This document shows positions 46,380-64,000 of a stretch of DNA of 64,000 bases, in pieces; the first letter of the stretch is position 1; the number at the start of each line of letters is the position of its first letter. The position numbers were made by a program, and so were the translations under genes. This DNA is from an uncultured bacterium (GTDB lineage Bacteria; Bacillota_I; Bacilli_A; RFN20; CAG-826): the NCBI GenBank assembly GCA_949292105.1, contig CASEYK010000016.1, forward strand, positions 9,256 through 73,255. The letters run 5' to 3'. The notes beneath the pieces were generated by a model. That model was not told the DNA's origin and did no database searches. It saw nothing but the letters and a program-made list of their open reading frames with translations.

Positions 46380-46390
46380 TTATTATTTAT

Positions 46391-46475
46391 GCAGCTGTGG
46401 CGGAACTGGCAGACGCACTAGACTTAGGATCTAGCGAGGAAACTCATGCAGGTTCAATTCCTGTCAGCTGCACCA
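46391..46475 (+). tRNA. tRNA-Leu (anticodon UAG), class II with a long variable arm, CCA encoded
   Basis: Acceptor GCAGCTG/CAGCTGC, anticodon stem CTAGA/TCTAG with loop CUUAGGA, ~13-nt variable arm, T-stem GCAGG/CCTGT, A73, CCA. 85 nt long. Confidence 0.8.
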
Positions 46476-46623: not shown

Positions 46624-46652
46624 TTGACTAACTCAAAAACAGATGTATTATT
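46624..46652 (+). promoter_or_regulatory. Putative sigma-A promoter of the fructan utilization operon
   Basis: TTGACT (46624-46629), 16-17-nt spacer, TATTAT/ATTATT (46646-46652). A cre-like element lies downstream and the AAGGAG SD is at 46676. Confidence 0.45.
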
Positions 46653-46690
46653 AGTGTGTATGGTATCGTTCCCACAAGGAGAATTTTGCA

Positions 46691-48031
46691 ATGAGAAATT
46701 TTAAATTACCAATTTTATTGTCTCTTGTCATGGCGGGCGCTTTAGCAATGACTGGATGTGGAAAATCATCAGAGGATGAAAGCGGCGTCAAGATTATTAC
46801 TGTTTGGGTTCACAAGAATGAAACAGAAGATGAAGGCAAAATTTACAAGCAAATTCAAACTAATTTCAACAATGCTGGGTTAACAACTTCAACTGGTCTC
46901 CAATTAAAAATGTCTATGTCGTTTTGGGGTTCAACTCTTGAAGATAAAATTAATGCTTCTATTATGACTAATTCCTTACCGGATATCATCGCTGTAGATA
47001 GTTCAGATGTAGCAGCAAAAGTGTATAACGATATTATTGTTTCATTTGATGAGTATTTAGATTCTGAAACAAAAAATTCCTATGTCGATAGTGTAATTCA
47101 ACAAGGCACGATCGATGGCAAAATGTACTTTTTATCGGGTATGGAAGCTCCGGGAGGCTTGTACTACAATAAAACCCTTCTTAAATCAGTTGGTTACACT
47201 GATGATGATTTTGGAACATGGGAAAATCCTTGGTCTTGGAAAGATGTTCACGAGGCTCAAGAAAAATTAAAAGCTGCAGGTTTAGAATATCAAATCGCAC
47301 TAAACCAAAATTTTGGCACAGATGGAAATATGTATTTATATTCCGGTCTCGTTTATTCAGCTGGTGCAACATTTGGTGAAGAAAATCATGTTACTGAAGC
47401 TTTGACAACTGACGAAGCCATTGCGGGCATATCACAACTTGAATTATTCTATTCAAACGAAGGTTTGTCGAGCAATGAATCTTGGGTCTATAGCGGAACA
47501 AATGAAAATGCTTTTGCTTCAGAACTCATTCCTTTTGAAATTCACGGACCTTGGGATGCTAGAAAAATTAAAAAAGCTGATTCCAACTTTAAAAATGAGT
47601 ATGGTATCATGCCATATCCTGTTTATGAAGATGAAAATGGCAATAAGAGCGACATAATTGCTATTCCTTGTGGATCGTATGGTTTTGGTATCACTAATGA
47701 CTGTAAAAATGTTGAAGCAGCAACTATTGCTTTGACCTATTTAACTGGTGCTGATGCGTCAAAAATGATGTATGACGCTATCGGAACTTTCCCAACAAAC
47801 AAAGCTTTATTGGAAAGTATGGATGAATTTAAAAGTGGACCAGAAAAAGATTTAGCTGATTATTTGGTTAAAAATCAATACACAAGGCCACAAATGGTTA
47901 AATATCCAATATTAAAAGATGCTTATGGCGAAGTTTTAAACTATATCAAAAATATGAACCTCGTCTCTAATTACAACTTAGAACAACAAATCAGAGAACA
48001 AATGACAAGAGTCGATGACGCAAGAGCATAG
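46691..48031 (+). CDS. Carbohydrate ABC transporter substrate-binding lipoprotein (SBP family 1)
   Basis: Signal peptide with an AMTGC lipobox. ~446 aa, with the usual SBP_bac_1 topology. First gene of the sugar locus. Confidence 0.8.
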   Translation: MRNFKLPILLSLVMAGALAMTGCGKSSEDESGVKIITVWVHKNETEDEGKIYKQIQTNFNNAGLTTSTGLQLKMSMSFWGSTLEDKINASIMTNSLPDIIAVDSSDVAAKVYNDIIVSFDEYLDSETKNSYVDSVIQQGTIDGKMYFLSGMEAPGGLYYNKTLLKSVGYTDDDFGTWENPWSWKDVHEAQEKLKAAGLEYQIALNQNFGTDGNMYLYSGLVYSAGATFGEENHVTEALTTDEAIAGISQLELFYSNEGLSSNESWVYSGTNENAFASELIPFEIHGPWDARKIKKADSNFKNEYGIMPYPVYEDENGNKSDIIAIPCGSYGFGITNDCKNVEAATIALTYLTGADASKMMYDAIGTFPTNKALLESMDEFKSGPEKDLADYLVKNQYTRPQMVKYPILKDAYGEVLNYIKNMNLVSNYNLEQQIREQMTRVDDARA

Positions 48032-48035
48032 CAAT

Positions 48036-48971
48036 ATGAAAATTGAAAATGTTGTTGCCAAAAGAAAACGAAATTCTTTTACACTCGGCAAGACTGAATA
48101 CAATACAAAAGAAGCATTGGCTGGTATCTTGTTTTTAGCGCCTTGCTTTATTCTTGCGGTAATCTTTGTTTTTCTACCAATTGTCATTTCGCTGGCATAT
48201 GCTTTCACTGATGCTAATATGTTGCGGCTAAATAAAGCTGAATTTATTTGGTTTGATAATTTTATAAGGGCCTTCAATGATGTTGAAATTAGGAACGCCT
48301 TAAAAAACACACTCATTTTCGTTTTAGGTGTTATGCCATTACAATTTGGTACAGCGTTAGGCTTAGCTTTGCTGCTCAATAAAATAAAAAGATTTAACAC
48401 TTTCTTTAGATGGGCATTCTTTGCTCCTGTGATGCTCTCTTTGGCTGTGACTTCTATGTTGTGGATGAATCTATTAAATCCACAAGAAGGACTGATTAAT
48501 ACTTTTTTATTGGCACTTGGAGCAAATCCAATGCTGTTTTTAGAAGATCCTAACCAAGCGATGGGTTGCATAATTTTTATTTCTGCATGGCAAGGTGCAG
48601 GTTACCAAATGTTGATCATTTTAAGTGGTTTAAAAAATATTCCAAAAGATATGTATGAGGCTGCAAGTATCGATCGCGCTAACAAGTGGCAACAATTTTT
48701 GCATGTAACCCTTCCATCGTTAAAACCAACCCTTGTTTTCGTTTTTATTACAATGCTTATTGGTGCTTTTAGGATTTGCGTTCAGCCGATGATTATGACT
48801 GGTGGTGGACCTTTGGGTTCAACTATGACAATGTCATATTACATTTACAAAACTGGCGTTGAATACCGCGATGTAGGTTATTCAAGTGCTATTGCGCTCT
48901 TATACACAATCATTATTGCAACAATTTCATTAACATTAAGAAAAGTGTTAGGAGGGGACAACCAAGCATAA
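48036..48971 (+). CDS. Carbohydrate ABC transporter permease (MalF/UgpA-like)
   Basis: 6-TM protein with an EAA-like loop (ASIDRANKWQQFLHVTLPSLKP). The ORF-track start at 48015 overlaps the SBP; ATG 48036 is preferred. Confidence 0.8.
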   Translation: MKIENVVAKRKRNSFTLGKTEYNTKEALAGILFLAPCFILAVIFVFLPIVISLAYAFTDANMLRLNKAEFIWFDNFIRAFNDVEIRNALKNTLIFVLGVMPLQFGTALGLALLLNKIKRFNTFFRWAFFAPVMLSLAVTSMLWMNLLNPQEGLINTFLLALGANPMLFLEDPNQAMGCIIFISAWQGAGYQMLIILSGLKNIPKDMYEAASIDRANKWQQFLHVTLPSLKPTLVFVFITMLIGAFRICVQPMIMTGGGPLGSTMTMSYYIYKTGVEYRDVGYSSAIALLYTIIIATISLTLRKVLGGDNQA

Positions 48972-48972
48972 T

Positions 48973-49884
48973 ATGGAAAATATCAATGTCAATCAAATTC
49001 CAACCCTTCACAAACCTAGAAAGAAAATTTCGTTTGGCAAAATCGTTATCAAAATTTTATTTGCTCTTCTTTGCCTCGCTCTAGCTTTTATCTTCTTATT
49101 TCCAGTTGTTTGGATGGTTTCCAATTCATTTAAAACAGATGAACAAGTGTACGCTCAAATGACGAGCATTTGGACCTTTTTTCCTCCTTCTTGGAATATA
49201 AGTGAATGGTTTGTATCATATATCAAACTATTCCAAACATTTGAATATTTTGGTCGTTCAATTTTAAATTCAATTTTATATTGTACAGTTACTATTGTTG
49301 CTGTTTTGGTCATCAATTCTTTAGCGGGATATGCTCTAGCAAGATTTAAATTTCCTGGCAACAAAGCCATGACAACCGTTATTTTGCTTTTGATGATTAT
49401 TCCTGTTGAAACAAGTATCGTTCCAACATACTTAATTCTTTATTACTTAGGATTATTGAGTGAACCTGTAAATATTATTGGTTACTTATTGCCCGGCTTT
49501 GCTTCGCTTTTTTATACATACATGTTTAGACAATATTTTTTGGGTATGCCAATTGAAATAGAAGAAGCAGCACGCATTGATGGATGCTCGAGAATTGGCG
49601 TGTTTTTCCGCATGATTGTTCCATTAGCTAAACCTATTTTTGCAACAGTAGCTATTTTCACATTTATGGGACAATGGAATGAGTACATCTTTGCACAATT
49701 TATGTTTCCTAATCCTGCATATCAACCGCTTCAAGTATTTTTACAACTAGTTAATACAGCCACCCCGAAAGATATTGGTGTTGTTATGGCTTCTTTGACC
49801 TTTTCAACAATTCCAATCGCCTTAGTTTACATCTTCGCTCAAAAATATATCGTCGAAGGAGTCAGTTTTACTGGTCTAAAATAA
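48973..49884 (+). CDS. Carbohydrate ABC transporter permease (MalG/UgpE-like)
   Basis: 6-TM protein with an EAA loop (EEAARIDGCSRIGVFFRMIVPLAKP). Confidence 0.8.
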   Translation: MENINVNQIPTLHKPRKKISFGKIVIKILFALLCLALAFIFLFPVVWMVSNSFKTDEQVYAQMTSIWTFFPPSWNISEWFVSYIKLFQTFEYFGRSILNSILYCTVTIVAVLVINSLAGYALARFKFPGNKAMTTVILLLMIIPVETSIVPTYLILYYLGLLSEPVNIIGYLLPGFASLFYTYMFRQYFLGMPIEIEEAARIDGCSRIGVFFRMIVPLAKPIFATVAIFTFMGQWNEYIFAQFMFPNPAYQPLQVFLQLVNTATPKDIGVVMASLTFSTIPIALVYIFAQKYIVEGVSFTGLK

Positions 49885-49885
49885 T

Positions 49886-52249
49886 ATGAAAAAAAGTTTA
49901 TCCTTATTAACCGCTGTCTTTTCTCTTTCAATCGTTCTTTCGGCTTGTCAATCTAATGATGACGAGCCTAATTATAATAAACATTTGCTTGCTTATTTTG
50001 AATTCAAACAAAATAATCAAAGCCTTTTAATTGATTCTTTAAATAATGTCGATCCTGTGAATGTTAATTATCATTTACTCGATTCATCGACTATTTCAGA
50101 ACCTAAAAATGTTCAATTTAAAGAAGGCATTTTCAATGAAGCAATGGTTTTTGATGGATATTCAACTTTTGCGAGTATCGAAAGCAGTGAATTAATGATT
50201 TCAGGGTCTAATTTTTCTATCAGCGCTTGGATTGCTCCTCGCTCATATAATTGGTCAGATCAAAACAGCGATGATGATTTAATTCAAGCCATTGCTAGCC
50301 AATATTACAAAGATGATTCATTCGCTATGGGCTTTCAGCTTGGTTATAGACGCGATGGCAAGGTCACATTTGGGGTTGGGACTGAAAGCGGATGGTATCA
50401 ACTATATGATGAAGGTAGCCCAATCAATCGTTATGAATGGAACCATATCTTAGCTACTTTTGATGGTGTAAATGGATCAATTCGATTATATGTGAACGGC
50501 AAAATCGCCAATCGTCTAGAAATTGAAAAAAATAGTAAAATTGTCGGATGCGATTTGCCTCTGTTAATTGGTAAAAACACTGTCTCAACTTCTTCAGGGG
50601 ATTGTTCAGAAGGAGTGATTTCTGGTCTACTTGATGAACTGAGATTGTACAATACTACGCTCTCTTATGATGACTACAAAGATTATTATTCTTCATGCCT
50701 AGTTAACGGCGAAATCAAAGATGTAAATTTTGAAGACGTATGGATTCAAAATACTTTAACTGACGATTTATACAAACCACAATACCATGGTGGCCCATAC
50801 GAACATTGGATGAATGAACCTCACGCCCCAATTTATTATAACGGTGTCTATCATTTATTTTTCCAATTCAATGAAAATGGTCCATATTTTAATGATGCCA
50901 AAGGAATTGCATGGGGCCATTTAACAAGTACAGACATGGTCGAATGGACACCTAGAAAAGAAGTAATTGTGCCAACGGCTAATACTGTTTGTCCAGATGG
51001 AGTTTGGTCGGGAGGGGCAACTTATGATAAAGATGGCGTCCCAGTGTTATTTTTTACTGCCGGTGACTATACTCATTCTGGCATGATTTCAAATCAAAAT
51101 ATTGGTCTTGCAACACCTAAAGATTTAAGCGATCCATATTTGACAGAATGGGTCGTTTCGGATGAGTTGGCCGTCGAACAAAAAAGTGGGCAAGGAAGAA
51201 CGGGCGAATTCCGCGACTGCCACTTAATTAAAGATGGCGAAAATTATTATATGTTAGTTGGTAGTGGCGATGAAAATTCAAATCGCGGGACAGTTTTAAT
51301 CTACACGACTAATACAAGTAAAAATGATTATTTTCACAACTGGGAATATAAAGGTCATTTATTTGACTATGCAAATAATGATTCAAAATATGGCACATCA
51401 TGGGAATTGCCGGTGCTTCTCCCCTTAAAAGATGAAAACGGGAATGACTCAAACAAATGGGTTTTAATAATCTCCCCAGCACCGGCTTCCACCGCTGATA
51501 ATAACATCATCTATTGGATTGGCGAGTTTGACAAAAATACATGTCGATTTGTCTCTGATTTTGCTGGTCCTAGAAGAATGGACTATGGTAAAAATGTTTT
51601 TACTGGTCCGAGCGGCTTTATCGATCCAAACACTGGTGAGGCTATGATGTTTTCAATTATGCAATCGCAAAGAGAATCAAGCGATTTAGCAAGTTCAGGT
51701 TGGTCACATAATGTTGGGTTAACAAGACGCTTAAGATACAATTCTCAAACAAACGATTTAAGTATTTCAATTATTGATAATGTTTCCAATTTATCAACCG
51801 GCGTTTTATACGACGCAACTAATTGTACAATTAGTGATATCAACCGAGCGATTTCTAATATTAAATCAGACATGTTTAATATCAAAATCGTTATCAACAA
51901 TCTAACTTCAAAATTTTCAATTAAAACAAGAATGACAGAATCACAAAGCGAATATACACTAATCTACGCTGATCCATCTAGCAATATAGTTGGAGCAGTT
52001 AATACATTAAATTTGAATAATTCATCATTAAGTTCAGGTGAATTTATTGGAAATATAAATGATTGCAGTCAATTATCAATAGATTTATATGTCGACCGCA
52101 GCCAAATCGAAGTAGTGTTCAATGATGAAAAGACAATCTCGTGCCGAAGTTATCCAAAGGATTTAAACGCTCTATTAACGCAACTTGAAGGTAGTGAAGA
52201 CATAGTAATCGACAGTTTTGTTATGAGTCAAATGAGGTCTATTTTCTAA
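49886..52249 (+). CDS. Surface lipoprotein: concanavalin/LamG-like lectin domain + GH32 beta-fructofuranosidase (levanase/inulinase-like)
   Basis: LSAC lipobox. N-terminal LamG_3-like domain (..LDELRLYNTTLS..). GH32 motifs WMNEPHAPIYYNGVYHLFFQ (WMNDPNG block), FRDCHL (RDP) and a C-terminal beta-sandwich (IDLYVDRSQIEVVFNDEKT). Confidence 0.8.
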   Translation: MKKSLSLLTAVFSLSIVLSACQSNDDEPNYNKHLLAYFEFKQNNQSLLIDSLNNVDPVNVNYHLLDSSTISEPKNVQFKEGIFNEAMVFDGYSTFASIESSELMISGSNFSISAWIAPRSYNWSDQNSDDDLIQAIASQYYKDDSFAMGFQLGYRRDGKVTFGVGTESGWYQLYDEGSPINRYEWNHILATFDGVNGSIRLYVNGKIANRLEIEKNSKIVGCDLPLLIGKNTVSTSSGDCSEGVISGLLDELRLYNTTLSYDDYKDYYSSCLVNGEIKDVNFEDVWIQNTLTDDLYKPQYHGGPYEHWMNEPHAPIYYNGVYHLFFQFNENGPYFNDAKGIAWGHLTSTDMVEWTPRKEVIVPTANTVCPDGVWSGGATYDKDGVPVLFFTAGDYTHSGMISNQNIGLATPKDLSDPYLTEWVVSDELAVEQKSGQGRTGEFRDCHLIKDGENYYMLVGSGDENSNRGTVLIYTTNTSKNDYFHNWEYKGHLFDYANNDSKYGTSWELPVLLPLKDENGNDSNKWVLIISPAPASTADNNIIYWIGEFDKNTCRFVSDFAGPRRMDYGKNVFTGPSGFIDPNTGEAMMFSIMQSQRESSDLASSGWSHNVGLTRRLRYNSQTNDLSISIIDNVSNLSTGVLYDATNCTISDINRAISNIKSDMFNIKIVINNLTSKFSIKTRMTESQSEYTLIYADPSSNIVGAVNTLNLNNSSLSSGEFIGNINDCSQLSIDLYVDRSQIEVVFNDEKTISCRSYPKDLNALLTQLEGSEDIVIDSFVMSQMRSIF

Positions 52250-54303
52250 TGAAAAAGAATGTGTCCAAATTGCTTACAGTTTTATTGTTATTAAGCTGCG
52301 TTTCTTGTGGAAACCAGAATAATTTTGAAGAATATTCTTTTGCTAATGCTGGATTTGAAACTGGTCTATTGACAAATTGGACAGCGACTGGAGATGCCTT
52401 TTCTGATAACAGTGTTACAATTGCAGATTCAAGCAAGGATAAAATTCATGTTGTTGGTAATTTCTATTTAAATGGTGAATCGAGTGGAAACGCCGCCACC
52501 GGCACCCTTCAGTCCACAACATTTAAACTAAATGGAAATGGCAAAATTGGTTTTATGATTGGTGCTGGTAAAAATCAGTCGCTTGTTTATGTTTCTTTGC
52601 ATTTAGAAGACACTGGTGAAGAAATAGGAAGAGTTAGCAATAAATTTTTTAATAGCGAAAATCCAAACAATCGCATGTATCGCATTATCCTTAATGCTTC
52701 GGAATACATTGGTGAAAATGTTTATTTAAAAATTGTCGATAATGATGCTCAAAACGATGGGTATAACTATATCATGGTTGATGATTTTATTGTTTCTTAT
52801 TTAGGAGATGAAGATGATGGCTCGCTGGTAAGCGATGCAAGAAAATATACCGAAGCAAATAAAAATAATGTTGGCAATGAATATCGCCATACATATCACT
52901 TAATGCCAACCATCGGTTGGATGAATGATCCGAATGGATTTACATACTATGATGGTTATTATCATTTATTTTATCAACATAATCCTTATTCATCCAATTG
53001 GGATACTATGCATTGGGGACATGCTATTTCGAAAGATTTAGTCGTATGGGAAGATGCTGGTGTCGCCTTGGCTCCAGATAAAACATATGATAAACTCGGT
53101 GTCTACTCTGGAGGAGCGATTGAGAAAGATGGAACTCTTAATTTGTTATATACATGTGTCGGTGATGGTGGGGTTCAGCAGCAAGCTCTAGCTACTAGCT
53201 ACGATGGTTATAATTTCACTAAACGCGCGAGTAATCCTGTTATTTCTTCTTCACAAAGGCTCAATTCGAGAGTTACTGACTTTAGAGATCCGTATTTATT
53301 TGAAAAGGATGGCGTTTACTACACCTTAATCGGAGGAAAGCTTGAAGGCGAAGGTGGACAATTAATCTTGTATTCTTCTAAAGATTTAATGAACTGGAAA
53401 ACCATTGGTAGTGTTTATTCTTCAACTTTGACGGGCGGCGGCATGTTTGAATGCCCAAATTTAGCCTTTTTTGGTGATAAAGAAGTTATCATTACTTCTC
53501 CCCAATCAATTCGAGATAGCGAAATATCAAATTATCAAAACATTCATTCAGTCACATATCAGATTGGCGACATCGATTTTGAAAATGGCGTTTTTACAAA
53601 TGAATTTGGTCAAGATTCCATGGAGGAATTTGACAAAGGATTCGATTTTTATGCCACACAAGTAATAAGTGAGGAAGATCGAGTTATTATGCTCGCTTGG
53701 ATGAATATGTGGTCGAGGAGTTATCCAACTGCAACCGATCAATGGGCAGGTGAAATTACTTTGCCTAGAGAATTAGAACTGGTTGATGGACATATTTATC
53801 AAAAACCGATACGCGAAATTGAAAATTACTATCAAAACGAGGTTATTTTGAGCAATATTGATGCAAATAATGAAAATATTGCATTAGATTTTAGAGGTAA
53901 TACTCTTCATTTAAAAGCAGAAATAGATGTATCAAGTTTAAATGGCGGGAAGAGTGGTTTTCATCTATTTAAAGGTTCGGATGAAGAGACAAGCATTTAT
54001 TATGATGATTCACTGGGGATGGTTGTCTTTAATCGAAAAAATAGTGGAGTTGAAATCGATTCTTTTGATGATGATGGCGAGCTAAATGTCCGCTACGCAT
54101 CTATTGAGCCGATTAATGATGTTATTAAATTAGAATTCTTTTTAGATGTTTCGAGCATCGAAGTTTTTATTAATGATGGTTACTATACCATGAGTGGCTT
54201 GGTTTACCCAAGTGAAGGTAGTGATGGAGTTGAATTTTTTGCCACTAATGGCAGTGCTACTTTAAATTCACTCGTCAAACATGATGTGATTGTGGGAGCG
54301 TAA
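52249..54303 (+). CDS. Surface lipoprotein: N-terminal CBM-like beta-sandwich module + GH32 beta-fructofuranosidase
   Basis: LLSCVSCG lipobox. ~155-aa N-terminal module opening NAGFETGLLTNWTATGDAF and ending YIGENVYLKIVDND..DDFIV. GH32 motifs GWMNDPNG, FRDPYLF, MFECPNL and the C-terminal LDVSSIEVFINDG. Confidence 0.85.
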   Translation: MKKNVSKLLTVLLLLSCVSCGNQNNFEEYSFANAGFETGLLTNWTATGDAFSDNSVTIADSSKDKIHVVGNFYLNGESSGNAATGTLQSTTFKLNGNGKIGFMIGAGKNQSLVYVSLHLEDTGEEIGRVSNKFFNSENPNNRMYRIILNASEYIGENVYLKIVDNDAQNDGYNYIMVDDFIVSYLGDEDDGSLVSDARKYTEANKNNVGNEYRHTYHLMPTIGWMNDPNGFTYYDGYYHLFYQHNPYSSNWDTMHWGHAISKDLVVWEDAGVALAPDKTYDKLGVYSGGAIEKDGTLNLLYTCVGDGGVQQQALATSYDGYNFTKRASNPVISSSQRLNSRVTDFRDPYLFEKDGVYYTLIGGKLEGEGGQLILYSSKDLMNWKTIGSVYSSTLTGGGMFECPNLAFFGDKEVIITSPQSIRDSEISNYQNIHSVTYQIGDIDFENGVFTNEFGQDSMEEFDKGFDFYATQVISEEDRVIMLAWMNMWSRSYPTATDQWAGEITLPRELELVDGHIYQKPIREIENYYQNEVILSNIDANNENIALDFRGNTLHLKAEIDVSSLNGGKSGFHLFKGSDEETSIYYDDSLGMVVFNRKNSGVEIDSFDDDGELNVRYASIEPINDVIKLEFFLDVSSIEVFINDGYYTMSGLVYPSEGSDGVEFFATNGSATLNSLVKHDVIVGA

Positions 54304-54305
54304 AA

Positions 54306-55739
54306 ATGAAGAAGAAAAATTATCGCCCGCTTTTACATATCACTCCAGACCATGGTTGGATAAATGATCCAAATGGCTTTTCATTTTTTAATGGTTTGTA
54401 TCATGTTTTCGCTCAATATTATCCGCATGAACTTAGGTGGGGCCCAATGCATTGGGCACATTTTGTCAGTACTGATTTAATCAATTGGAAACAAGTTCAA
54501 AACGCTCTAAAACCCGATCAGCCTTATGATCAAGATTTTGGATGCTTTTCGGGCAGTGCATTATCCATAAATAATAAGCACATACTTGCCTATACAGGTG
54601 TGGCAAATAACAAGCAAACGCAATGTTTAGCGACTTCAACCGACGGACTTAATTATGTCAAACATCCGTTAAATCCAATTATTGATGAGCGATTATTACC
54701 TTCTGGATATGATGTTGCGAACTTTAGGGATCCTAAGATTTTTTATCGGCACGGTTCTTTTTATATTTTAGTTGGCGCCAAACGAACCGACGGCATTTCT
54801 TCTTTGCTCCTTTTTAGAGGCGATTCGTTTGATCATGTTGAATTTGTTCGCTCTATTTTTGATATGTCAGGTCTCGGTGCAGGAATGTTGGAATGCTGTG
54901 ATATTTTATTCTTAAATGAAAAGGATGATCGATGCATACTTTTGTGTTCACCTCAATTTAAAAAATCACCATGTCCATACCATTATCAAAATATTCATTC
55001 TACTCTTGCTTTATTAGGTGAATTAGATTTTGCAAATTGTTGTTTTATTCCTTCCAGCCCTGAAATTGAATTAGATCTTGGCTTTGATTTTTATGCAGCA
55101 CAAACTCTTGCTCGTGATAATCATTTTTATCTAATTGCGTGGGAATCAATGTGGGATCGAAATTATCCAAGTGAACAGTGTGGTTTTGTCGGTCAATTAA
55201 CATGTCCCCGCGAATTAACAATTATCGATAATTCCATCCATCAGAAGTTTGTTTCTTCTCTAGATAATTATTTTGCTGAAGTTAATTGTTTTGAAGAATT
55301 GCTGGTTGACCACCAAAAAGATTTTTTTAGTCAAGATGAAGTGAGAAGATATCGTTTTGAAGTTGAAGCAGATGGCAATTATTCAATTATTTTATATTCA
55401 AATGGTAAAACAGGTTATGTAATTAATTCCGATATAAAAACAAAACTTGTGCAATTCAATCGTTCTTGTTCGAATGAAAAAATTTCAAATGTTAATGGCA
55501 CTCAAGCCGATGTGCGCAATATTCGCATTGAAGAAGGATGCCAAACTATCAGTTTTGACATTTTAATTGATCATTGCTCGTGCGAAATTTTAATTAACAA
55601 CGGGAGATACTCTTTCACTTCATTGTTTTATCCCGATGGTGAATTTGGCATTTCGTTTATGAATAAGGCGAACAAAATGATTATAAAAAATTTAGTGATT
55701 AGCGGATTAGTAAACAAGGAGGCTTACAAAGATGATTAA
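54306..55739 (+). CDS. Cytoplasmic GH32 sucrose-6-phosphate hydrolase / beta-fructofuranosidase (ScrB-like)
   Basis: No signal peptide. Motifs HGWINDPNG, FRDPKIF, MLECCDI and the C-terminal IDHCSCEILINNG. Confidence 0.8.
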   Translation: MKKKNYRPLLHITPDHGWINDPNGFSFFNGLYHVFAQYYPHELRWGPMHWAHFVSTDLINWKQVQNALKPDQPYDQDFGCFSGSALSINNKHILAYTGVANNKQTQCLATSTDGLNYVKHPLNPIIDERLLPSGYDVANFRDPKIFYRHGSFYILVGAKRTDGISSLLLFRGDSFDHVEFVRSIFDMSGLGAGMLECCDILFLNEKDDRCILLCSPQFKKSPCPYHYQNIHSTLALLGELDFANCCFIPSSPEIELDLGFDFYAAQTLARDNHFYLIAWESMWDRNYPSEQCGFVGQLTCPRELTIIDNSIHQKFVSSLDNYFAEVNCFEELLVDHQKDFFSQDEVRRYRFEVEADGNYSIILYSNGKTGYVINSDIKTKLVQFNRSCSNEKISNVNGTQADVRNIRIEEGCQTISFDILIDHCSCEILINNGRYSFTSLFYPDGEFGISFMNKANKMIIKNLVISGLVNKEAYKDD

Positions 55740-57945: not shown

Positions 57946-57955
57946 GGAGGAAATT

Positions 57956-59785
57956 ATGATGAAAAAGAATTTACTTTTAGGATTTGGCATCGTTGCTCTT
58001 GCTTCTGCTGCATTTGGAATATTAAGCAACGAGTCAAAAACAATTTCGTCAGTTAAAGCGGAAGATAATTCAACACTAGTGACATATATTCCTTTTAACA
58101 ATGACAATTTCACAATTGTAACAGATGAAGGAGTTGAAACAGAACTAGGTGATACATCAGATTGGGTTACTGGTCGATATGGTACATTTTGGAACTATAG
58201 GTATTTCAACGCTATGGATGATTTTTATGATGGAAATAGACAAGAAAGTTGGACTGGAACTATTACATCTAGAACATGGGTTCAACAAAATAAATATGTC
58301 ACTTTCACTCTTGGCGGTAACTCTCAGAATAAAGTTTTAATTAAGAATGAGAGTGGAGAAGTTGTTGCAACTGCAAACAATAATTTATTTAATGATCCGT
58401 ACTTATCAGTCAATATGATTACTAAAGTTGTTACTGTTCCAGAAGAATATATTGGTCAGACACTTCATCTTGAAATTATCGATTCAACAACAAATGGTTT
58501 TGGTATGACTACTTTTGGTGCGTTAAAGGTTAACCAAACTTTAGATGATGTTGCTCAAACAGTTGTTGCCCATATTGCTGAAACAAAATGGATTGTTGAC
58601 CTCAATGATGATTCTGCCCCGGCTAATACAAATACTCTTGCGGCTGACTATATCATCAATGTATATCGCACAGCCGATGAGTATGAACTTGTTAGAAATA
58701 ACGGTTTAATAATTAATGAAGATGGCAGTTTTACATCGCCATTAACTGATGTCGATGAAGGTTTTGAATCAAGTGGTTTAACGAATTGGGCGTATGACAT
58801 CGAATATTCAGACAATGGTAACGAAGAGGAACCTGCCAACTACTTTATTCCTTTCGCTTCTTCTATTTCGGAAGAAACATATGCTGGATGGATAGAACAC
58901 ATGCCTTTTAATAAAACCGGCAACAAATTTTACAAAGGATGGGAAGACGGATTTGATGAGGCAGCGAAGTATCGTTTATTATCTGCTCCATTCACGCTTT
59001 CTGGCACAGGACTTATTTCGATTAAAATGGCTGGCAATTCAGCCGCTTTACAAATTTTAGATGCATCCACACATGAACAATTGATGGAAGTCAACAATCA
59101 AGTATTTCTTGACAATGTTGATACTGTTGTTGGTGGCGGCAGATTATGCACTATGGTTCGTCATATCATTGATGCCAGCGATTATCTCGGCCAACAAATT
59201 GTCATCGCTCTTGCTGATAACCGAACAGGCGGTGGCTGGGGATGTGTCTTCTTTGATGAATTAATTACAAACTATCAGGCTTTGCCTTCGTTAAAATTGG
59301 ATACAATTGTTCAAAGTGGGACTATTAATGGCGAAGATGTCACTAATTATGGCGTTATTCGAGACACATATGTTGGATCTATGGATTCAACTTTTGGCCA
59401 AGCGTATACATTTATGAACAATTATTATGATACTTTGAGAAATTCAACTAATAATTTTTCATATTGTAGTATAATCTCTAGTGAAGAAGTCAAAAATGTT
59501 TTGGAAAGTTATGAAGCACTTCCTGAAGAAGTTCAAACAATTGTCCAAAACAGTGATGACTATTCATATACTGGCTCTATTTATTCAAGCGAAGTTCAAT
59601 TGTACAAAGTCATTGAGACAATCAACTACATTAATGGTCAAAACGACAATGCTGGAAATTTAAAATCATCATTTGGTGTTTTACCTGTTAAGAATAGCAT
59701 CGCGATTGCCATTGGTGTTTTATCGTTGACAGTATTCCTTTTCGCGGTTATTTTTGTCAGTAGAAAGAAAAAAACACATAACTAG
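57956..59785 (+). CDS. Membrane-anchored surface protein with two copies of the same CBM-like module (signal peptide + C-terminal TM anchor)
   Basis: Cleavable-type signal peptide. Two modules (..TFTLGGNSQNKVLIKN...EEYIGQTLHLEIID.. and ..FTLSGTGLISIKMAGN...SDYLGQQIVIALADN...FFDEL). C-terminal LPVKNS + hydrophobic helix + RKKKTHN. Confidence 0.55.
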   Translation: MMKKNLLLGFGIVALASAAFGILSNESKTISSVKAEDNSTLVTYIPFNNDNFTIVTDEGVETELGDTSDWVTGRYGTFWNYRYFNAMDDFYDGNRQESWTGTITSRTWVQQNKYVTFTLGGNSQNKVLIKNESGEVVATANNNLFNDPYLSVNMITKVVTVPEEYIGQTLHLEIIDSTTNGFGMTTFGALKVNQTLDDVAQTVVAHIAETKWIVDLNDDSAPANTNTLAADYIINVYRTADEYELVRNNGLIINEDGSFTSPLTDVDEGFESSGLTNWAYDIEYSDNGNEEEPANYFIPFASSISEETYAGWIEHMPFNKTGNKFYKGWEDGFDEAAKYRLLSAPFTLSGTGLISIKMAGNSAALQILDASTHEQLMEVNNQVFLDNVDTVVGGGRLCTMVRHIIDASDYLGQQIVIALADNRTGGGWGCVFFDELITNYQALPSLKLDTIVQSGTINGEDVTNYGVIRDTYVGSMDSTFGQAYTFMNNYYDTLRNSTNNFSYCSIISSEEVKNVLESYEALPEEVQTIVQNSDDYSYTGSIYSSEVQLYKVIETINYINGQNDNAGNLKSSFGVLPVKNSIAIAIGVLSLTVFLFAVIFVSRKKKTHN

Positions 59786-59797
59786 TAGGTAATAAGG

Positions 59798-60754
59798 ATG
59801 GGAAAAACAATTGTCGATATCGCAAAGATTGCGAATGTTAGCAAATCGACCGTATCTAGATATTTGAACAATGGATATGTGTCGAAAGAAGCTCAAGAGA
59901 GAATCAAACAAGCGATTGAATCAGAAAATTATGAGCAGAATTCATTTGGAAGAATGCTCAAACTGAATCGCTCCTTTGCTATCGCTTTATGCGTGCCGAT
60001 GATTTCCCATCCTTTTTTCGCAAAAATCACTGAAGAAATTGAAAACTGCGCATATGAATTTGGCTATAAACTGCTAGTCACTGATTCAGATAATAATCGT
60101 GCTAGAGAAGAAGAATTTATTCGTATGGTTTATAAAAATCAGGTCGATGGTATTATTTTTATCACTCATAACAAGTACGAATGTTTTGATTCTTCCTTAC
60201 CAATTGTTACAATTGATCGTCTATTTGGCGATAATGTCCCATGCATCACTTCTGATAATTACAACGCTACATATAACGCTATTAAATATCTCTTTGAAAA
60301 GGGATGCCACAATATTGGTTTTATCGGAGGCAGACCCCTTGTTAATTCAGAAGTGCTAGAACGATATCATGCTTATCTTGATGCTTGCAAAGATTTTGGT
60401 TTGCAGACATATGTCTCTTATGGAGATTTTAGGCATGGTGAAGAATACACTCATTCCAATGAATTTTTGCATAAGTATACAAATTTAGATGCCGTGTTTG
60501 CTACCTCTGATACATTTGGTTTTACAATTTATCGCGTGGCTACCGAAATGAAATATCCACAGCAATTAAAAATTATTACTTACGACGGCTGTATGAGCGA
60601 TTGGATTCAAAATCCAGCTTTTACAACCATCCGTCAAGATTTGAAAAGTATGGCTTTTAAAGTCGTGGATACTTTAATTAAAAGAATCAACAAAAAACAA
60701 GTTGAAAGCAAAATTGTTGTGCCAACCGAATTCATTATTGGAGAAACTACATAA
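59798..60754 (+). CDS. LacI-family transcriptional regulator (likely sucrose/fructan operon repressor)
   Basis: N-terminal HTH TIVDIAKIANVSKSTVSRYLNN, plus a periplasmic-binding-protein-like sugar-binding domain. Confidence 0.8.
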   Translation: MGKTIVDIAKIANVSKSTVSRYLNNGYVSKEAQERIKQAIESENYEQNSFGRMLKLNRSFAIALCVPMISHPFFAKITEEIENCAYEFGYKLLVTDSDNNRAREEEFIRMVYKNQVDGIIFITHNKYECFDSSLPIVTIDRLFGDNVPCITSDNYNATYNAIKYLFEKGCHNIGFIGGRPLVNSEVLERYHAYLDACKDFGLQTYVSYGDFRHGEEYTHSNEFLHKYTNLDAVFATSDTFGFTIYRVATEMKYPQQLKIITYDGCMSDWIQNPAFTTIRQDLKSMAFKVVDTLIKRINKKQVESKIVVPTEFIIGETT

Positions 60755-61680
60755 TGATTTTAATCGTCGGTGAAATATTGATGGATGTTTTTAAAGAACA
60801 TAACAATGTTGAGTCCCACCCAGGTGGAGCCCCTTTCAATGTTGCTTGCAATGTTGCTTTTTTTGGTGGCGATGTTGCTTTCTATGGATGCGTTGGCAAC
60901 GATGACTATGGAAACCAATTATATGAATTCTCAAAAACAATAGCTTTAAAAAAGAATTTGGTTCAACGACTAGGAAAGCACCATACAACTGTTGCGCTCG
61001 TCAGTTTAAATCAAGGTGAAAGATCATTTCGTTTTTTAAGAGATGACGGCACTGATTATCAATTTGATTTTGAAAAATTCAAAACAATTGACTTAAGCGA
61101 AATTAATATTGTCCATTTCGGTTCTTTAATGCTATCACATCAGTCTGGACGAGAATTTTTAAACAAAGCAATTGAATATTTACGTCAATTCCCTCATATT
61201 CAAATTTCATTTGATGTAAACTATCGCGATGATATTTTTGAAGACACTAATTCTAAATCGTTTTATTTAAATGTTATTGAGAAATCCGATTTGGTTAAAA
61301 TTAGCGAAGATGAAGTTCACTTTTTATCAGGATGTTCATCGATAGAAGAAGGTTTAAATCAAATTTTTCATTCACGACAGCATGTTTTTTTATCACTTGG
61401 TCAAGAAGGTTCATGCTATTACCACGAACAGAAACTTATAAAAGCAAAAACAATTAAAGTTCGCCCAGTTGATACGACAGGCGCTGGTGATAGTTTTTAT
61501 TCCTACATTTTGTACTGTTTGAATAAGGATAAGAATATTTTATTGGATACCATCAAGATTCAAAACATGTTGGAATGTGCAAATATTGTCGGTGCGTATG
61601 CTACAACAAAAAAAGGCGCTATTGGTGTTGTACCATCAGTAGATGTAATAGTGGAAATCCAAAAAAATGAAAAGAAATAG
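60754..61680 (+). CDS. PfkB-family fructokinase
   Basis: N-terminal LIVGEILMDVF...GGAPFNVA and the C-terminal DTTGAGDSF anion hole. Sits in a GH32 locus. Confidence 0.75.
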   Translation: MILIVGEILMDVFKEHNNVESHPGGAPFNVACNVAFFGGDVAFYGCVGNDDYGNQLYEFSKTIALKKNLVQRLGKHHTTVALVSLNQGERSFRFLRDDGTDYQFDFEKFKTIDLSEINIVHFGSLMLSHQSGREFLNKAIEYLRQFPHIQISFDVNYRDDIFEDTNSKSFYLNVIEKSDLVKISEDEVHFLSGCSSIEEGLNQIFHSRQHVFLSLGQEGSCYYHEQKLIKAKTIKVRPVDTTGAGDSFYSYILYCLNKDKNILLDTIKIQNMLECANIVGAYATTKKGAIGVVPSVDVIVEIQKNEKK

Positions 61681-62566
61681 TTTATATAATTTTTTCAATA
61701 AAAATAATGATAAGCCAAATTCCGATCGACTCCCATCAAATCGCTTTAAAGCTTATTTTGATATTCTTCGCAATCGATTTGGAAAAGTTGTTTTGCTCTC
61801 ACTCATTACAACTATTTTCTTTTTGCCACTGATTATCTTTTCGTTTTTTTGGAATGTTTACAGCAATTATTCTATTGAACAATTTGCCGTCGAAAACTCT
61901 GATCAAACTCTTATTTTATTTCAGAAATTTTCTCTTATTTCTATGCAATATTTATTTTCTATACCTCTTTTTATCATTGGCTTTATTGGCTTGGGAGGTA
62001 CTTTTTATGTCAGCAAGAAAATGGTGTTTCAAGAAGGAGATATTTTCCTGTGGAGCGATTTTTTCTCTGGCGTTAAGTCAAATATTAAATCATCCTTATT
62101 GAGCGGTGTATGTTTTTCTGTTTATCTATTAATTTACTTTATGAATATCTATTTTTATCCGATTGTTAGCGAAATTCCGTTTGCTGTTAAAATCATCCTT
62201 ATTATTTTACTGAGCATTATATTGGTTTTTGTTACTAGTTTTTGCTTATTTGTTCTCGCTAGTGCATCTATTTATCAGTTCAAATTTGTACCAACAGTTA
62301 AAAACAACGCTCTTTTAGCAGCTATCTTATTTCCAACGAATATTTTGATGTGCCTTCTCAGCCTCTTCTTTTTTATTGGTGCATTTTTATTGCCATACAT
62401 TATTATTCAAAGCATATTTTTATTGCTTATCATTTTATTTGGTTTTTCACATCTTGCTATTTCATTTAATCTTTATGCATTCAAAATGTTTGATAAACAT
62501 ATCAATATTCGGTATTCTCAAGAACTTACCGACAAAGGTTTAGATAAAGGCCAAAAGGAGGAATAA
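61667..62566 (+). CDS. DUF624/YesL-like integral membrane protein (sugar-operon associated)
   Basis: The N-terminus (..LYNFFNK..RF...FDILRNRFGKVVLLSLI..) and the 5-6 TM layout resemble the YesL family commonly linked to carbohydrate ABC operons. Confidence 0.45.
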   Translation: MKRNSLYNFFNKNNDKPNSDRLPSNRFKAYFDILRNRFGKVVLLSLITTIFFLPLIIFSFFWNVYSNYSIEQFAVENSDQTLILFQKFSLISMQYLFSIPLFIIGFIGLGGTFYVSKKMVFQEGDIFLWSDFFSGVKSNIKSSLLSGVCFSVYLLIYFMNIYFYPIVSEIPFAVKIILIILLSIILVFVTSFCLFVLASASIYQFKFVPTVKNNALLAAILFPTNILMCLLSLFFFIGAFLLPYIIIQSIFLLLIILFGFSHLAISFNLYAFKMFDKHINIRYSQELTDKGLDKGQKEE

Positions 62567-62569
62567 TTT

Positions 62570-64000
62570 ATGGCTAGTTTAAAGTTTGAACATATCTATA
62601 AAGTTTATGATGGAGGAGTAAAAGCGGTCTCTGACTTGAACTTGACAATCGACGATAATGAGTTTGTTGTTTTTGTCGGTCCTTCTGGATGTGGCAAATC
62701 AACAACGCTTCGTATGATTGCCGGCTTGGAAGAAATTACGTCTGGCAATTTATACATAGATGGCAAAGTAGTAAATGATTTGTCACCAAAGGATCGCGAT
62801 ATAACGATGGTCTTTCAAAATTATGCCCTCTATCCTCATATGACGGTTTATGACAATATGGCCTTTGGACTAAAAATGGCTAAAGTGCCAAAAGAAGAAA
62901 TTAAAAAGCGAATTGAAAATGCAGCTGAGATTTTGGGGTTAACACCTTATCTTTCAAGAAAACCAACAGCCCTTTCTGGTGGTCAAAGACAAAGAGTAGC
63001 GCTTGGTAGAAGCATCGTTCGTGAACCTAAGGTATTTTTGCTCGATGAGCCTCTTTCTAATCTTGATGCAAAGTTACGAGTTTCGATGCGCAGCGAAATA
63101 ACGAAATTGCATCGTAGACTTCAAACAACCTTTGTCTATGTCACGCACGATCAAACAGAAGCTATGACGATGGGAACAAAAATAGTGGTGATGAAAAACG
63201 GAATTGTTCAGCAAGTTGATACACCAACCAATCTTTATGACCACCCCGCTAATGTTTTTGTTGCTACCTTTTTAGGCTCCCCACAAATGAATTTATTTGA
63301 TGCTAAACTTGAGCAAGATGGTAACGACTATTATGCTGTTATCACCAAAAATGATTCTAAATTTAAAACCAAAATTCATATCAGCACTATACACCAACTC
63401 ATTTCGTATAGTTATATTGGCAAAGATATTATATTAGGAATTCGACCTGAAGAGATATTTGATGTCGATGAAAATGAAGAAGACGCCGTCCCAGTCATCA
63501 TTGATGTCATTGAGAAGTTAGGAAGCGAAATTGTTTGTTACTGCCAAATCGAAAACACTGATATTTCGTTGGTTGTTAAATTAGATGGGCGAAAGGAAGT
63601 TCGCGAAGGCGATAAGATTTTTGTAAAATTCCATACGAGACATGTTCATCTTTTTGATAAAGACAGCGAAAAAAGAATTTCTGGTATCTCAAACGATAAC
63701 TATATCAAGGCAACATTGAACTATGACAAATCTAATATTCAGTTTGCCGACAAAACTATCGAGATAAGCGAAGAAACTAAAACCAAAATTCTTCCCGAAT
63801 TTAGAAAAGATTGTCATATTTTGATGAAAATACCGACCAATAGTTTTAAGTTGAAATCTGAAACGGATACCGATATTGCTTTTGAAGGCAAGATCGAAAT
63901 TGTCGAGCAGAGTAAAGAACAAACTTTAGTTTATATTTCGATGCCACATAAGAAGTCATACATTGGTGTTAAACTGCATAAACATGATTATCAAGAAGGC
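62570..64000 (+). CDS. Sugar ABC transporter ATPase, MsmK/MalK-type, with an extended C-terminal regulatory region (3' end beyond the window)
   Basis: AAGGAGG SD 8 nt upstream. Walker A GPSGCGKST, Q-loop, signature LSGGQRQRVALGR, Walker B VFLLDEPLSNLD, H-loop. The frame stays open to the window end (>476 aa), so it is longer than a typical MalK. Confidence 0.85.
   Translation, partial: MASLKFEHIYKVYDGGVKAVSDLNLTIDDNEFVVFVGPSGCGKSTTLRMIAGLEEITSGNLYIDGKVVNDLSPKDRDITMVFQNYALYPHMTVYDNMAFGLKMAKVPKEEIKKRIENAAEILGLTPYLSRKPTALSGGQRQRVALGRSIVREPKVFLLDEPLSNLDAKLRVSMRSEITKLHRRLQTTFVYVTHDQTEAMTMGTKIVVMKNGIVQQVDTPTNLYDHPANVFVATFLGSPQMNLFDAKLEQDGNDYYAVITKNDSKFKTKIHISTIHQLISYSYIGKDIILGIRPEEIFDVDENEEDAVPVIIDVIEKLGSEIVCYCQIENTDISLVVKLDGRKEVREGDKIFVKFHTRHVHLFDKDSEKRISGISNDNYIKATLNYDKSNIQFADKTIEISEETKTKILPEFRKDCHILMKIPTNSFKLKSETDTDIAFEGKIEIVEQSKEQTLVYISMPHKKSYIGVKLHKHDYQEG

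Follow-up and report, generated by a model that had tools for sequence, protein, structure and literature searches.

A probable inulin utilization locus with enzyme-free CBM38 surface proteins in an uncultured Bacilli bacterium

INTRODUCTION

In Bacteroides thetaiotaomicron, the levan PUL BT1757-1763 includes a surface glycan-binding protein, BT1761, and an endo-levanase, BT1760. [quoted passage not shown] In the fructan gpPULs Eub-3 and Eub-4 of Eubacterium rectale and Roseburia inulinivorans, as described, there is one GH32, which in some cases bears CBM66, and stand-alone binding proteins are absent (PMC5320581). The cycloinulo-oligosaccharide fructanotransferases (CFTases) of Paenibacillus and Niallia circulans (for example, O52973 and AAG47946.1) are giant enzymes, secreted or SLH anchored, with two to five CBM38 modules fused N-terminally and one fused C-terminally, and this architecture has also been annotated as CBM38x3-GH32-CBM38 (PMC7355431). 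In the Paenibacillus macerans CFTase, CBM38 corresponds to residues 32 to 389 and forms two β-sandwiches; one biochemical study is reported to have shown that it binds both inulin and levan with low micromolar affinity (PMC10076258).

Here, we analyzed a 64-kb stretch of DNA (the window) from an uncultured anaerobic gut-type Bacilli bacterium. The window carries a locus for plant fructan use, and the fructan is probably inulin. Apart from two enzyme-free CBM38 surface proteins, the locus is of the ordinary sugar-use kind, and we consider it likely that it represents a LacI-controlled gpPUL for inulin-type fructan that captures, cuts, imports, and finishes its substrate.

RESULTS

Operon structure and transport genes. 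The ORF map of the 64-kb window showed 12 tightly packed genes on the + strand between positions 46624 and 64000, in the order SBP, permease 1, permease 2, GH32A, GH32B, GH32C, ncA, ncB, lacI, kinase, membrane protein, and ATPase; all coordinates below refer to this strand. The intergenic gaps were at most 12 nt throughout, and with the longest ORFs the overlaps were 1 to 14 nt, the 14-nt overlap being that of the frk/membrane-protein pair. An SBP/permease 1 overlap of 17 nt, obtained with the longest ORF, disappeared when permease 1 was started at 48036, the position used in gene calls on same-species contigs. Given the measured spacing and this start, the earlier view of a single + strand operon-like unit, in which neighboring genes are separated or overlap by no more than 13 nt, was essentially right, with one overlap of 14 nt.

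The SBP (46691..48031; 446 aa; SBP_bac_1, 5e-26) was a lipoprotein of a CUT1-type sugar ABC importer, with the lipobox LAMTGC and only distant PDB relatives, all of them sugar SBPs. It was followed by permease 1 (48015..48971, likely start 48036; 311 aa in the same-species gene calls; BPD_transp_1, 8e-18) and permease 2 (48973..49884; BPD_transp_1, 1.6e-16). The MsmK/MalK-type ABC ATPase at the other end (62570..64000; MalK/UgpC-type in Pfam and NCBIfam) is cut by the window end. In contigs more than 99% identical to the window, the full protein was 624 aa, not ~370 aa, and its gene extended 444 nt beyond the window to approximately 64444 and formed the end of the operon; no terminator was found downstream of it. 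The C-terminal extension of ~250 aa was weakly TOBE-like and conserved only in the related loci L005 to L008 and L046. The LacI-family repressor (59798..60754) had a Pfam LacI HTH match of 6.5e-14 and Peripla_BP_1/3 matches. Thus, the solute-binding lipoprotein, the two permeases, the LacI repressor, and the MsmK-type ATPase, of which the window holds a part, were all as first described.

Two further labels needed qualification. The gene given earlier as a fructokinase (60754..61680) belonged to the PfkB family (2e-43), and its top NCBIfam match was the fructokinase NF006957, yet at 171 bits this was below the cut-off of 450; we regard the protein as probably a fructokinase. The label DUF624 for the polytopic membrane protein (61667..62566) was not established, because all family matches were subthreshold: DUF624 (PF04854) scored 16.1 bits (E value, 0.013) against a Pfam gathering cut-off of 24.2, and NCBIfam MusI scored 21.6 bits (E value, 1.6e-4) against a cut-off of 160. 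This protein, which was kept only in the closest syntenic loci, sits where sugar ABC operons carry YesL/DUF624/MusI-type accessory proteins and may be a transporter accessory.

The best + strand promoter-like site in the region, TTGACT-16-TATTAT (46624..46651), lay 5' of the first gene and was recognized by consensus matching (10/12 matches). Position 46624, taken earlier as the start of the locus, belongs to the -35 hexamer and is not a gene start. The site is preceded by a tRNA cluster and then a terminator-like hairpin/T-run. An imperfect palindrome, TGGTATCGTTCCCA (46661..46674), which followed the -10 hexamer and preceded the RBS, is a candidate LacI-type operator, although it may instead be a CcpA cre site. 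In the 64 kb, the pattern TGNNANCGNTNNCA had only two occurrences. Palindromes of nearly the same sequence (TGGGAACGCTACCA, TGGAAACGCTTTCA, and others) adjoined the SBP start in L005, L008, L027, and L046, that is, in 4/25 loci, compared with ~0.25 expected. A second promoter-like site, TTGACA-17-TATTTT (59726..59754; also a consensus match, 10/12), was located just 5' of lacI and could permit repressor expression without dependence on the main promoter. Elsewhere in the window, translation of two small ORFs listed previously gave a 46-aa rubredoxin-like CxxC...CPxCG peptide (1684-1824) and a 37-aa L36-like peptide (27484-27597), and the hand-read tRNA anticodons were correct as Ile-GAT, Val-CAC, Thr-TGT, and Leu-TAG.

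GH32 enzymes. As anticipated, two of the GH32 enzymes were lipoproteins, one with LamG and one with a CBM-like module, the latter being CBM38. GH32A (49886..52249; lipobox LSAC) consisted of a LamG-like domain (aa 95-261; Laminin_G_3, 2e-20) and a GH32 catalytic domain (GH32N/C) with the motifs WMNEP (aa 308), FRDC (442), and WELP (506). It had Glu for Asp at the nucleophile position, as did the named CFTases (NWMNEAHAP), and WMNEP was present in 75/92 GH32A-type ORFs of related loci. The nucleophile of the endo-inulinase INU2 is Glu43, in YWMNEPNG (PMC5245892). GH32A matched the named CFTases over aa 59-786 (~730 residues, LamG plus catalytic domain; E value, 1e-132) with 36% identity, a level that does not separate hydrolase from transferase, and we place it, on sequence grounds, in a CFTase/endo-inulinase-like clade. 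One shared residue and this clade membership suggest that it acts in the endo mode.

GH32B (52249..54303; lipobox LLSC/VSC) carried one CBM38 (aa 22-195, nt 52312-52833), in a region lacking Pfam and NCBIfam annotation, followed by a GH32 domain (GH32N/C) with the canonical motifs WMNDP (224), FRDP (345), and FECP (400). Its top PDB relatives were the exo-acting fructosidases 7vco (1e-78), 1uyp, and 3pig, and it exceeded the cut-off of TIGR01322 with 393 bits; it is probably an exo-β-fructosidase. GH32C (54306..55739; GH32N/C) had no signal peptide and also showed canonical motifs (WINDP at 18, FRDP at 140, and LECC). Thus, the GH32 triad (WMNDPNG, RDP, EC) could be located in all three enzymes, in canonical form in GH32B and GH32C and with the clade-conserved Glu in GH32A. 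The earlier name for GH32C, a cytoplasmic ScrB-like GH32, was right as to location, but "ScrB-like" holds as homology only, since ABC import leaves the substrate unphosphorylated.

CBM38 modules and noncatalytic proteins. An HMM built from the window modules recovered six copies in the operon (E values, 1e-51 to 1e-70), one in GH32B, three in ncA, and two in ncB, so that the modules of ncA and ncB are the same as that at the N terminus of GH32B. The lipoprotein ncA (55732..57945; 737 aa; lipobox VGGC) contained M1 (aa 27-219, nt 55810-56388), M2 (aa 231-412, nt 56422-56967), and M3 (aa 536-715, nt 57337-57876), together with helical linkers and a small β domain at aa 456-536 (AF2 pLDDT, 86), and the M1-M2-M3 order was kept across species; the three would be ancient, positionally conserved CBM38 paralogues. 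ncB (57956..59785; 609 aa) had an N-terminal signal, modules at aa 35-205 (nt 58058-58570) and aa 254-448 (nt 58715-59299), and a C-terminal hydrophobic helix (aa 581-601, nt 59696-59758) followed by a KKK tail. The module HMM, the VGGC lipobox, and the ncB helix agree with the previously proposed three-module noncatalytic lipoprotein and TM-anchored two-module protein. Orthologues of ncB with the same anchor were found only in the closest relatives (L005 to L008 and L045). Although its helix and basic tail resemble a sortase signal, ncB had just "LPVKN" and no LPXTG, and its orthologues likewise lacked the motif. Indeed, LPXT[GASN] was absent from all 12 operon proteins, as expected from the claim that no LPXTG anchoring is used.

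Neither ncA nor ncB matched a Pfam or NCBIfam family. Homology assigns the module to family CBM38 of CAZy, known from CFTase as its inulin-binding module. The module HMM matched named CFTases (O52973 of N. circulans and the P. polymyxa CFTase; E values, 1e-64 to 1e-20) both in the N-terminal tandem and at the C terminus, and BLAST gave 28 to 46% identity between window and CFTase CBM38 modules (E values, 5e-7 to 2e-46), with 31 to 46% for those of ncA. This homology to the X39/CBM38 modules of the Paenibacillus CFTase falls in the region to which CBM38 has been assigned (PMC10076258). The AF2 model was a β-sandwich of the CBM type (pLDDT, 91), and no homology or close fold match was found to the CBM66 module at the C terminus of SacC (PDB 4azz). 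The six operon modules were only 23 to 40% identical to each other, and therefore some may bind something else. Among the best 150 module representatives, 19 of the 143 newly returned proteins carried GH32. A scan of 36 other large module proteins gave two GH32 C-terminal-type matches and one GDSL lipase, the remainder having only FIVAR, Big_2, and similar noncatalytic domains; in these two sets, no glycoside hydrolase family besides GH32 was fused to the module.

Conservation in related loci. We compared 78 species-level loci with module genes. A GH32 gene was located within 10 kb of the module gene in 73/78 loci, and a separate GH32 gene was present in 53/57 loci with a noncatalytic module protein, the median distance being 4 nt. 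Of the 78 loci, 62 to 63 had permeases, 56 had LacI, and 48 had the kinase. The check proposed in the preliminary description, whether module genes travel with GH32 genes, was thus strongly positive, and together with the gene content it supports a single fructan utilization locus. Orthologous lipobox-bearing three-module proteins occurred in GH32 loci of Lachnospiraceae-, Oscillospiraceae-, and Christensenellaceae-labelled MAGs. In the 78 loci, neither the module proteins nor the GH32 proteins contained LPXTG, and Paenibacillus relatives had SLH domains in its place. Because the same lipoproteins occur in these MAGs and LPXTG is absent from all of the loci, the mode of anchoring does not support the earlier suggestion of a host with a thin wall or none; the 64-kb window held no cell-wall-informative gene. 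Overall, dozens of Firmicutes species share the arrangement of enzyme-free proteins built from repeated CBM38, and we found no description of stand-alone multi-CBM38 surface proteins in the literature searched.

DISCUSSION

The CBM38 modules, the likeness of GH32A to CFTase, and the GH32 linkage of the loci give good inferential support to a capture, cut, import, and finish scheme. Lipid-anchored ncA, with three modules, and tail-anchored ncB, with two, would hold soluble polymer at the membrane by avidity; since CBM38 is reported to bind inulin and levan (PMC10076258), surface capture is a reasonable expectation. GH32A, with its Glu nucleophile, would cleave the chain internally at the surface, and GH32B, with CBM38 and a canonical GH32, would trim chain or oligomer ends. 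Fructo-oligosaccharides would be imported by the SBP, the two permeases, and the MsmK-type ATPase; GH32C would hydrolyze them in the cytoplasm, and the PfkB kinase would phosphorylate the fructose.

The same logic could serve a main substrate other than inulin, either levan (β-2,6 fructan) or grass fructans of mixed or branched type, which we consider unlikely. The reported levan binding of CFTase CBM38 (PMC10076258), the frequent activity of exo-GH32 enzymes on both linkages, and the possibility that six divergent modules differ in specificity are consistent with such substrates. However, the nearest characterized relatives of GH32A are the inulin-specific CFTases, and the characterized endo-levanases 9h8i, 6r3r, and 7znr are weak or absent matches for it. 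Like GH32A, endo-inulinase has Glu as its nucleophile; the endo-levanase BT1760, in contrast, carries Asp, and in another motif (PMC5245892). On these sequence comparisons, inulin is favored over levan, and the original "levan or inulin" stands as fructan and can be narrowed towards inulin.

It is quite unlikely that GH32A is a true fructanotransferase that converts surface-held inulin to cycloinulo-oligosaccharides for import and subsequent ring opening in the cytoplasm; such a "selfish" use of cyclofructans would parallel the way starch is handled in the cyclodextrin pathway. The whole LamG plus GH32 core and the WMNE motif are common to GH32A and the named CFTases, and Paenibacillus CFTase orthologues lie in similar loci that also encode ABC permeases, LacI, a kinase, and additional GH32 enzymes; the identity, however, is low, the Glu-bearing clade is large, and GH32A (LamG plus GH32 only) lacks the fused N- and C-terminal CBM38 of all named CFTases and with it their full architecture (CBM38 tandem, LamG, GH32, CBM38). 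We know of no sequence determinant of cyclization. That ncA and ncB are adhesins or structural surface proteins sharing a fold, in a locus for sucrose or short FOS only, is very improbable: both lack family annotation, the fold class also holds noncarbohydrate domains, MAM and gingipain adhesin domains among them, and the module proteins of L047 and L048 have no nearby GH32, but the homology to CBM38 is at the sequence level, beyond fold likeness, GH32 linkage is near-universal and immediately adjacent, and the module is fused to GH32 in GH32B and 19 representative proteins and to no other GH family found.

For the inulin gpPUL reading, we propose tentatively, as quite possible, that ncA-type proteins are the Gram-positive inulin counterpart of Bacteroides surface glycan-binding proteins and, with ncB, act as in-trans modules. 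If so, binding modules that are present in cis in CFTase-type enzymes would be provided in trans by ncA and ncB, which would explain at the molecular level why many gut Firmicutes bind inulin. In the boldest version of this proposal, GH32A would produce cyclofructans that no cell but the producer can import.

With three GH32 genes, of which those for GH32A and GH32B encode lipoprotein signals, an SBP, two permeases, and an MsmK-type ATPase for transport, and the LacI-family gene at 59798-60754 as regulator, the locus has every component of a gpPUL. The preliminary description of a monoderm counterpart of a PUL fits but is not new, because the published gpPUL concept already includes fructan gpPULs (PMC5320581). 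The locus shares with Eub-3 and Eub-4 the core of GH32, ABC transporter, LacI-type regulator, and fructokinase (PMC5320581) and differs from them in having three GH32 genes, CBM38 rather than CBM66, and two noncatalytic multi-CBM38 surface proteins. Bacillus subtilis levanase SacC, with its CBM66, likewise combines an exo-GH32 with a fructan-binding β-sandwich module. The B. thetaiotaomicron levan PUL works alike: one or more lipoprotein binders and an endo-GH32 act at the surface, and import and additional hydrolysis by GH32 enzymes come next. However, this locus is not a member of the Bacteroidetes Sus-like PULs and resembles them in function only: SusC (TonB-dependent transporter) and SusD families had no match among the 12 operon proteins, an outer membrane is lacking, the binders show no sequence relationship, import is by an ABC transporter, and the likely substrate is inulin instead of levan. 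With the CFTases it shares the LamG plus GH32 core, the Glu, and the CBM38 family, but the GH32A core is free of CBM38, and the modules are found in GH32B, a canonical GH32, and in distinct membrane-anchored proteins.

Operon layout and gene content

From position 46691 to the end of the window lie twelve genes, all on the + strand, with gaps of at most 12 nt and small overlaps, to which families were assigned by scans that included Pfam and NCBIfam. The first encodes the solute-binding lipoprotein (SBP) of a sugar ABC importer and is followed by genes for two CUT1-type permeases and three GH32 enzymes: GH32A, with a lipobox, a Laminin_G_3 (LamG) domain and GH32N/C; GH32B, with a lipobox, an unannotated N-terminal module of ~175 aa and GH32N/C; and the cytoplasmic GH32C, without a signal peptide. 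Two non-catalytic surface proteins for which the scans returned no match, ncA (a 737-aa lipoprotein) and ncB (609 aa), come next, and then LacI, a PfkB kinase with fructokinase as its top match, a polytopic membrane protein and a MalK/UgpC-type ATPase. The locus and the parts listed for it in the preliminary description are real, and the name DUF624 for the membrane protein was dropped, its match being sub-threshold. The proposed logic of surface capture, cleavage, import and cytoplasmic finishing would best explain the locus. A search by homology for the ligand specificity of the SBP returned only distant PDB relatives.

The ATPase gene is the last of the gene string: in same-species contigs (>99% identical), retrieved through an exact-protein look-up, 90 nt separate it from the next genes, which are unrelated, and a search for a terminator 3' of it found none. 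Full length in these contigs, the protein has 624 aa. It is of the MsmK type (window 62570-64000 and beyond; L001:16125-17999, L-numbers denoting related loci), normal and MalK-like over aa 1-370 and then extended by ~250 aa that have no Pfam match and resemble the TOBE regulatory domain only weakly (E 0.02). None but the nearest syntenic loci, L005-L008 and L046, have kept the long form (619-699 aa), and the ATPases of Clostridia loci have ~400 aa. On the - strand, an antisense ORF of 197 aa (47978-48571) crosses the SBP/permease junction; because + strand genes with good support enclose it completely, it is in all likelihood spurious.

Identity of the repeated module

Self-comparison gave six copies of one module of ~175 aa, one in GH32B (aa 22-195), three in ncA (M1-M3 in N-to-C order) and two in ncB, with pairwise identities of 23-40%. 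An AlphaFold2 model of the GH32B module, built on 67 diverse copies, was confident (pLDDT 91), and the modeled fold is the beta-sandwich known from CBM4/16/22/61, with which Foldseek was concordant. CBM66, the levan-binding module of SacC, was absent from both match lists for this model and from the sequence-profile searches. The model of whole ncA (pLDDT 86) contains three module sandwiches together with linkers of helical structure and, at aa 456-536, a small beta domain. For ncB, a degenerate sortase signal ('LPVKN' followed by a helix and KKK) was ruled out, since the orthologues keep the helix and tail without such a motif.

Because Pfam, NCBIfam and the PDB gave no match for the module, it was at first read as an unclassified CBM. 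A new family was ruled out, as named cycloinulo-oligosaccharide fructanotransferases (CFTases) carry the same module. In a direct test of module identity, the search query was a protein of Paenibacillus terreus that the genome scan had found, and it retrieved proteins named CFTase at 82-86% identity, from Niallia circulans (O52973, 1503 aa) and P. polymyxa (1333 aa). The window-derived HMM matched O52973 at 53-232, 236-418, 417-560 and 1325-1496 and the P. polymyxa CFTase at 70-250, 254-396 and 1162-1333, with E values of 1e-64 to 1e-20, and the window modules were 28-46% identical to the named CFTases by BLAST. These matches are in line with the P. macerans CFTase (1333 aa), in which CBM38 is reported to span residues 32-389, to form two beta-sandwiches and to have a low micromolar affinity for inulin/levan (PMC10076258). 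On this sequence evidence, we identify the repeated module as CBM38, a known CAZy family that is barely studied.

A profile search of 1.84 billion representatives returned 3942 proteins with the module, 1448 of them at E<1e-10 and often with 3-10 copies per protein. Among the 143 newly returned proteins within the best 150 of the 3942, 19 also had a GH32 domain. When 36 other large module proteins were scanned, two had GH32 C-terminal-type matches, one had a GDSL lipase, the remainder had nothing beyond FIVAR, Big_2 and similar non-catalytic domains, and GH32 was the sole glycoside hydrolase family found. The dbCAN architecture published for Defluviitalea raffinosedens is CBM38(44-189)+CBM38(221-367)+CBM38(409-527)+GH32(808-1121)+CBM38(1313-1448) (PMC7355431), and P0144, a module-bearing protein, has the window module at 39-209, 220-393, 403-556 and 1330-1490 and GH32 from 815.

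GH32 enzymes

The canonical motifs WMNDP/WINDP, FRDP and EC are present in GH32B and GH32C, whose nearest solved relatives are exo-acting fructosidases. GH32A is divergent (best PDB E-value, ~1e-29) and has the motif WMNEP, with Glu in place of the usual nucleophile Asp. This Glu is not a defect, because it is common to ORFs of the clade (WMNEP in 75 of the 92 GH32A-type ORFs of related loci), module-fused relatives (W-x-N-E) and named CFTases (NWMNEAHAP). Over aa 59-786, which comprise the LamG and catalytic domains, GH32A is 36% identical to CFTases (E 1e-132); the nucleophile of the fungal endo-inulinase INU2 is Glu43, in YWMNEPNG (PMC5245892). We infer that GH32A acts on inulin, probably in endo fashion, and at 36% identity either a hydrolase or a transferase would fit. 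Its LamG domain is similar to pentraxins and to a domain of an S-layer protein (4qvs) and showed no resemblance to CBM66. By sequence, there is a large bacterial GH32 clade with a predicted Glu nucleophile and a LamG domain, with the CFTases inside it; this clade likely includes endo-inulinases, enzymes of potential use in making FOS.

Upstream region and regulation

Four tRNA genes, Ile-GAT, Val-CAC, Thr-TGT and Leu-TAG (46032-46475), stand after the rplM-rpsI pair and directly 5' of the operon, and ARAGORN and Rfam agree on them. ARAGORN places the 3' ends 3 nt further on, which suggests that the CCA ends are encoded. A hairpin/T-run follows, then a promoter-like site (TTGACT-16-TATTAT, 46624-46651) and an imperfect palindrome, TGGTATCGTTCCCA (46661-46674), between the -10 hexamer and the RBS and near the start of the first gene. 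The reverse complement of the palindrome is TGGGAACGATACCA, and it nearly equals TGGGAACGCTACCA 5' of the SBP gene in L005. Similar palindromes were also found in L008, L027 and L046, for a total of 4 of 25 loci versus ~0.25 expected, and the conserved form, TGGRAACGNTWYCA, lies upstream of the SBP gene in these four loci as well as in the window. This site fits a candidate operator of the LacI-family repressor encoded in the locus; it may instead be a CcpA/cre element. Besides this putative operator region, a near-consensus promoter-like site (TTGACA-17-TATTTT, 59726-59754) falls within the 3' part of ncB, 44 nt ahead of lacI; from it, lacI, the kinase and the ATPase may be expressed apart from the main promoter.

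Related loci and the host

Scanning one genome per GTDB species with an alignment of ncA orthologues yielded 78 loci. The expectation that module genes travel with GH32 genes was borne out: GH32 lay within 10 kb in 73 loci and was of the LamG-GH32A type in 71, with permeases in 62-63, LacI in 56 and a kinase in 48. A separate GH32 ORF was present in 53 of the 57 loci having a non-catalytic protein with at least two modules, at a median distance of 4 nt, and two of the remaining four are short contigs. L047 (a Bacilli MAG) and L048 (a Haloplasma contractile MAG) encode lipoproteins with four or five CBM38 modules and have no GH32 gene within 10 kb; they may be the only apparently genuine exceptions to the linkage. 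Complete synteny with the window, which takes in a protein of the ncB type, the small membrane protein and the extended ATPase, was found only in the closest relatives, L005-L008 and L046, and most of it, ncB included, in L045. The lipoprotein with three modules, by comparison, recurs widely in MAGs that bear the labels Lachnospiraceae, Oscillospiraceae, Christensenellaceae and Clostridia, and its module order is kept, the best match being M1 at position 1 in 32 of 44 proteins, M2 at position 2 in 33 of 44 and M3 at position 3 in 37 of 44.

The motif LPXTG occurred in none of the module or GH32 proteins of the 78 loci, as had been stated for the locus. The accompanying suggestion of a wall-less host is not supported, since in genomes that carry the labels of ordinary Firmicutes families the orthologues are as a rule anchored through a lipobox, and the 64-kb window has no wall-related genes, for or against a wall. 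Outside the operon, only housekeeping and anaerobe genes occur in the window, whose FeFe hydrogenase and rubredoxin genes show the host to be an anaerobe. At 29943-36757 are a Fer4_20/Pyr_redox_2 oxidoreductase, a DHO_dh-type dehydrogenase with 4Fe-4S domains, a Nuo51-like flavoprotein and an [FeFe]-hydrogenase large subunit, a cluster that is typical of a strict anaerobe and is probably an electron-bifurcating hydrogenase set. The two small ORFs that the preliminary description had added translate cleanly, into a 46-aa rubredoxin-like peptide (1684-1824; CxxC...CPxCG) and a 37-aa L36-like peptide (27484-27597). Two adjoining ORFs of 321 and 534 aa (5651-8266), downstream of an ABC exporter gene pair, had no Pfam match at E 1e-5.

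Discussion

Inulin is the most widely used prebiotic. By activity-based sorting, many Gram-positive gut bacteria were found to bind it before degradation, in a study that names no binding proteins (PMC10721620). The ncA-type family is conserved, lipid-anchored and enzyme-free, with three CBM38 modules, and its genes stand directly beside GH32 genes in >50 species-level genomes labelled Bacilli, Lachnospiraceae, Oscillospiraceae and Christensenellaceae; for these reasons it is a concrete candidate for inulin binding by gut bacteria. In the literature searched, we found no description of stand-alone membrane-anchored multi-CBM38 proteins and their conservation (an absence that is not proof of novelty), of fructan-binding lipoproteins of Firmicutes, or of the LamG and Glu-nucleophile GH32 clade, CFTases included, as the usual partner. 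The GH32/ABC/LacI/fructokinase core is routine. The earlier likening to a monoderm polysaccharide utilization locus corresponds to the Gram-positive polysaccharide utilization locus (gpPUL), a concept already in print, fructan examples included (PMC5320581), and the locus shows all three of its defining features. The locus fills in a component and leaves the general picture of Firmicutes glycan use unchanged; it is of relevance to workers on prebiotic fructan use (cf. PMC10721620) and no surprise in kind.

Paenibacillus, Cohnella and Neobacillus have the modules in one polypeptide with the LamG-GH32A core; these fusion enzymes are 1300-2266 aa long, and many of them bear SLH domains. CFTase orthologues of Paenibacillus (L051-L073, from Paenibacillus and Cohnella; P0453 and P0495) lie in fructan loci with ABC permeases, LacI, fructokinase and two or three further GH32 genes, among them another LamG-GH32 that lacks part of the module set. 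This gene content hints at a dedicated uptake route for CFTase products. One parts list is thus found in two forms: in the CFTase-like form, the modules and LamG-GH32 are fused, whereas in the window locus the same parts are split.
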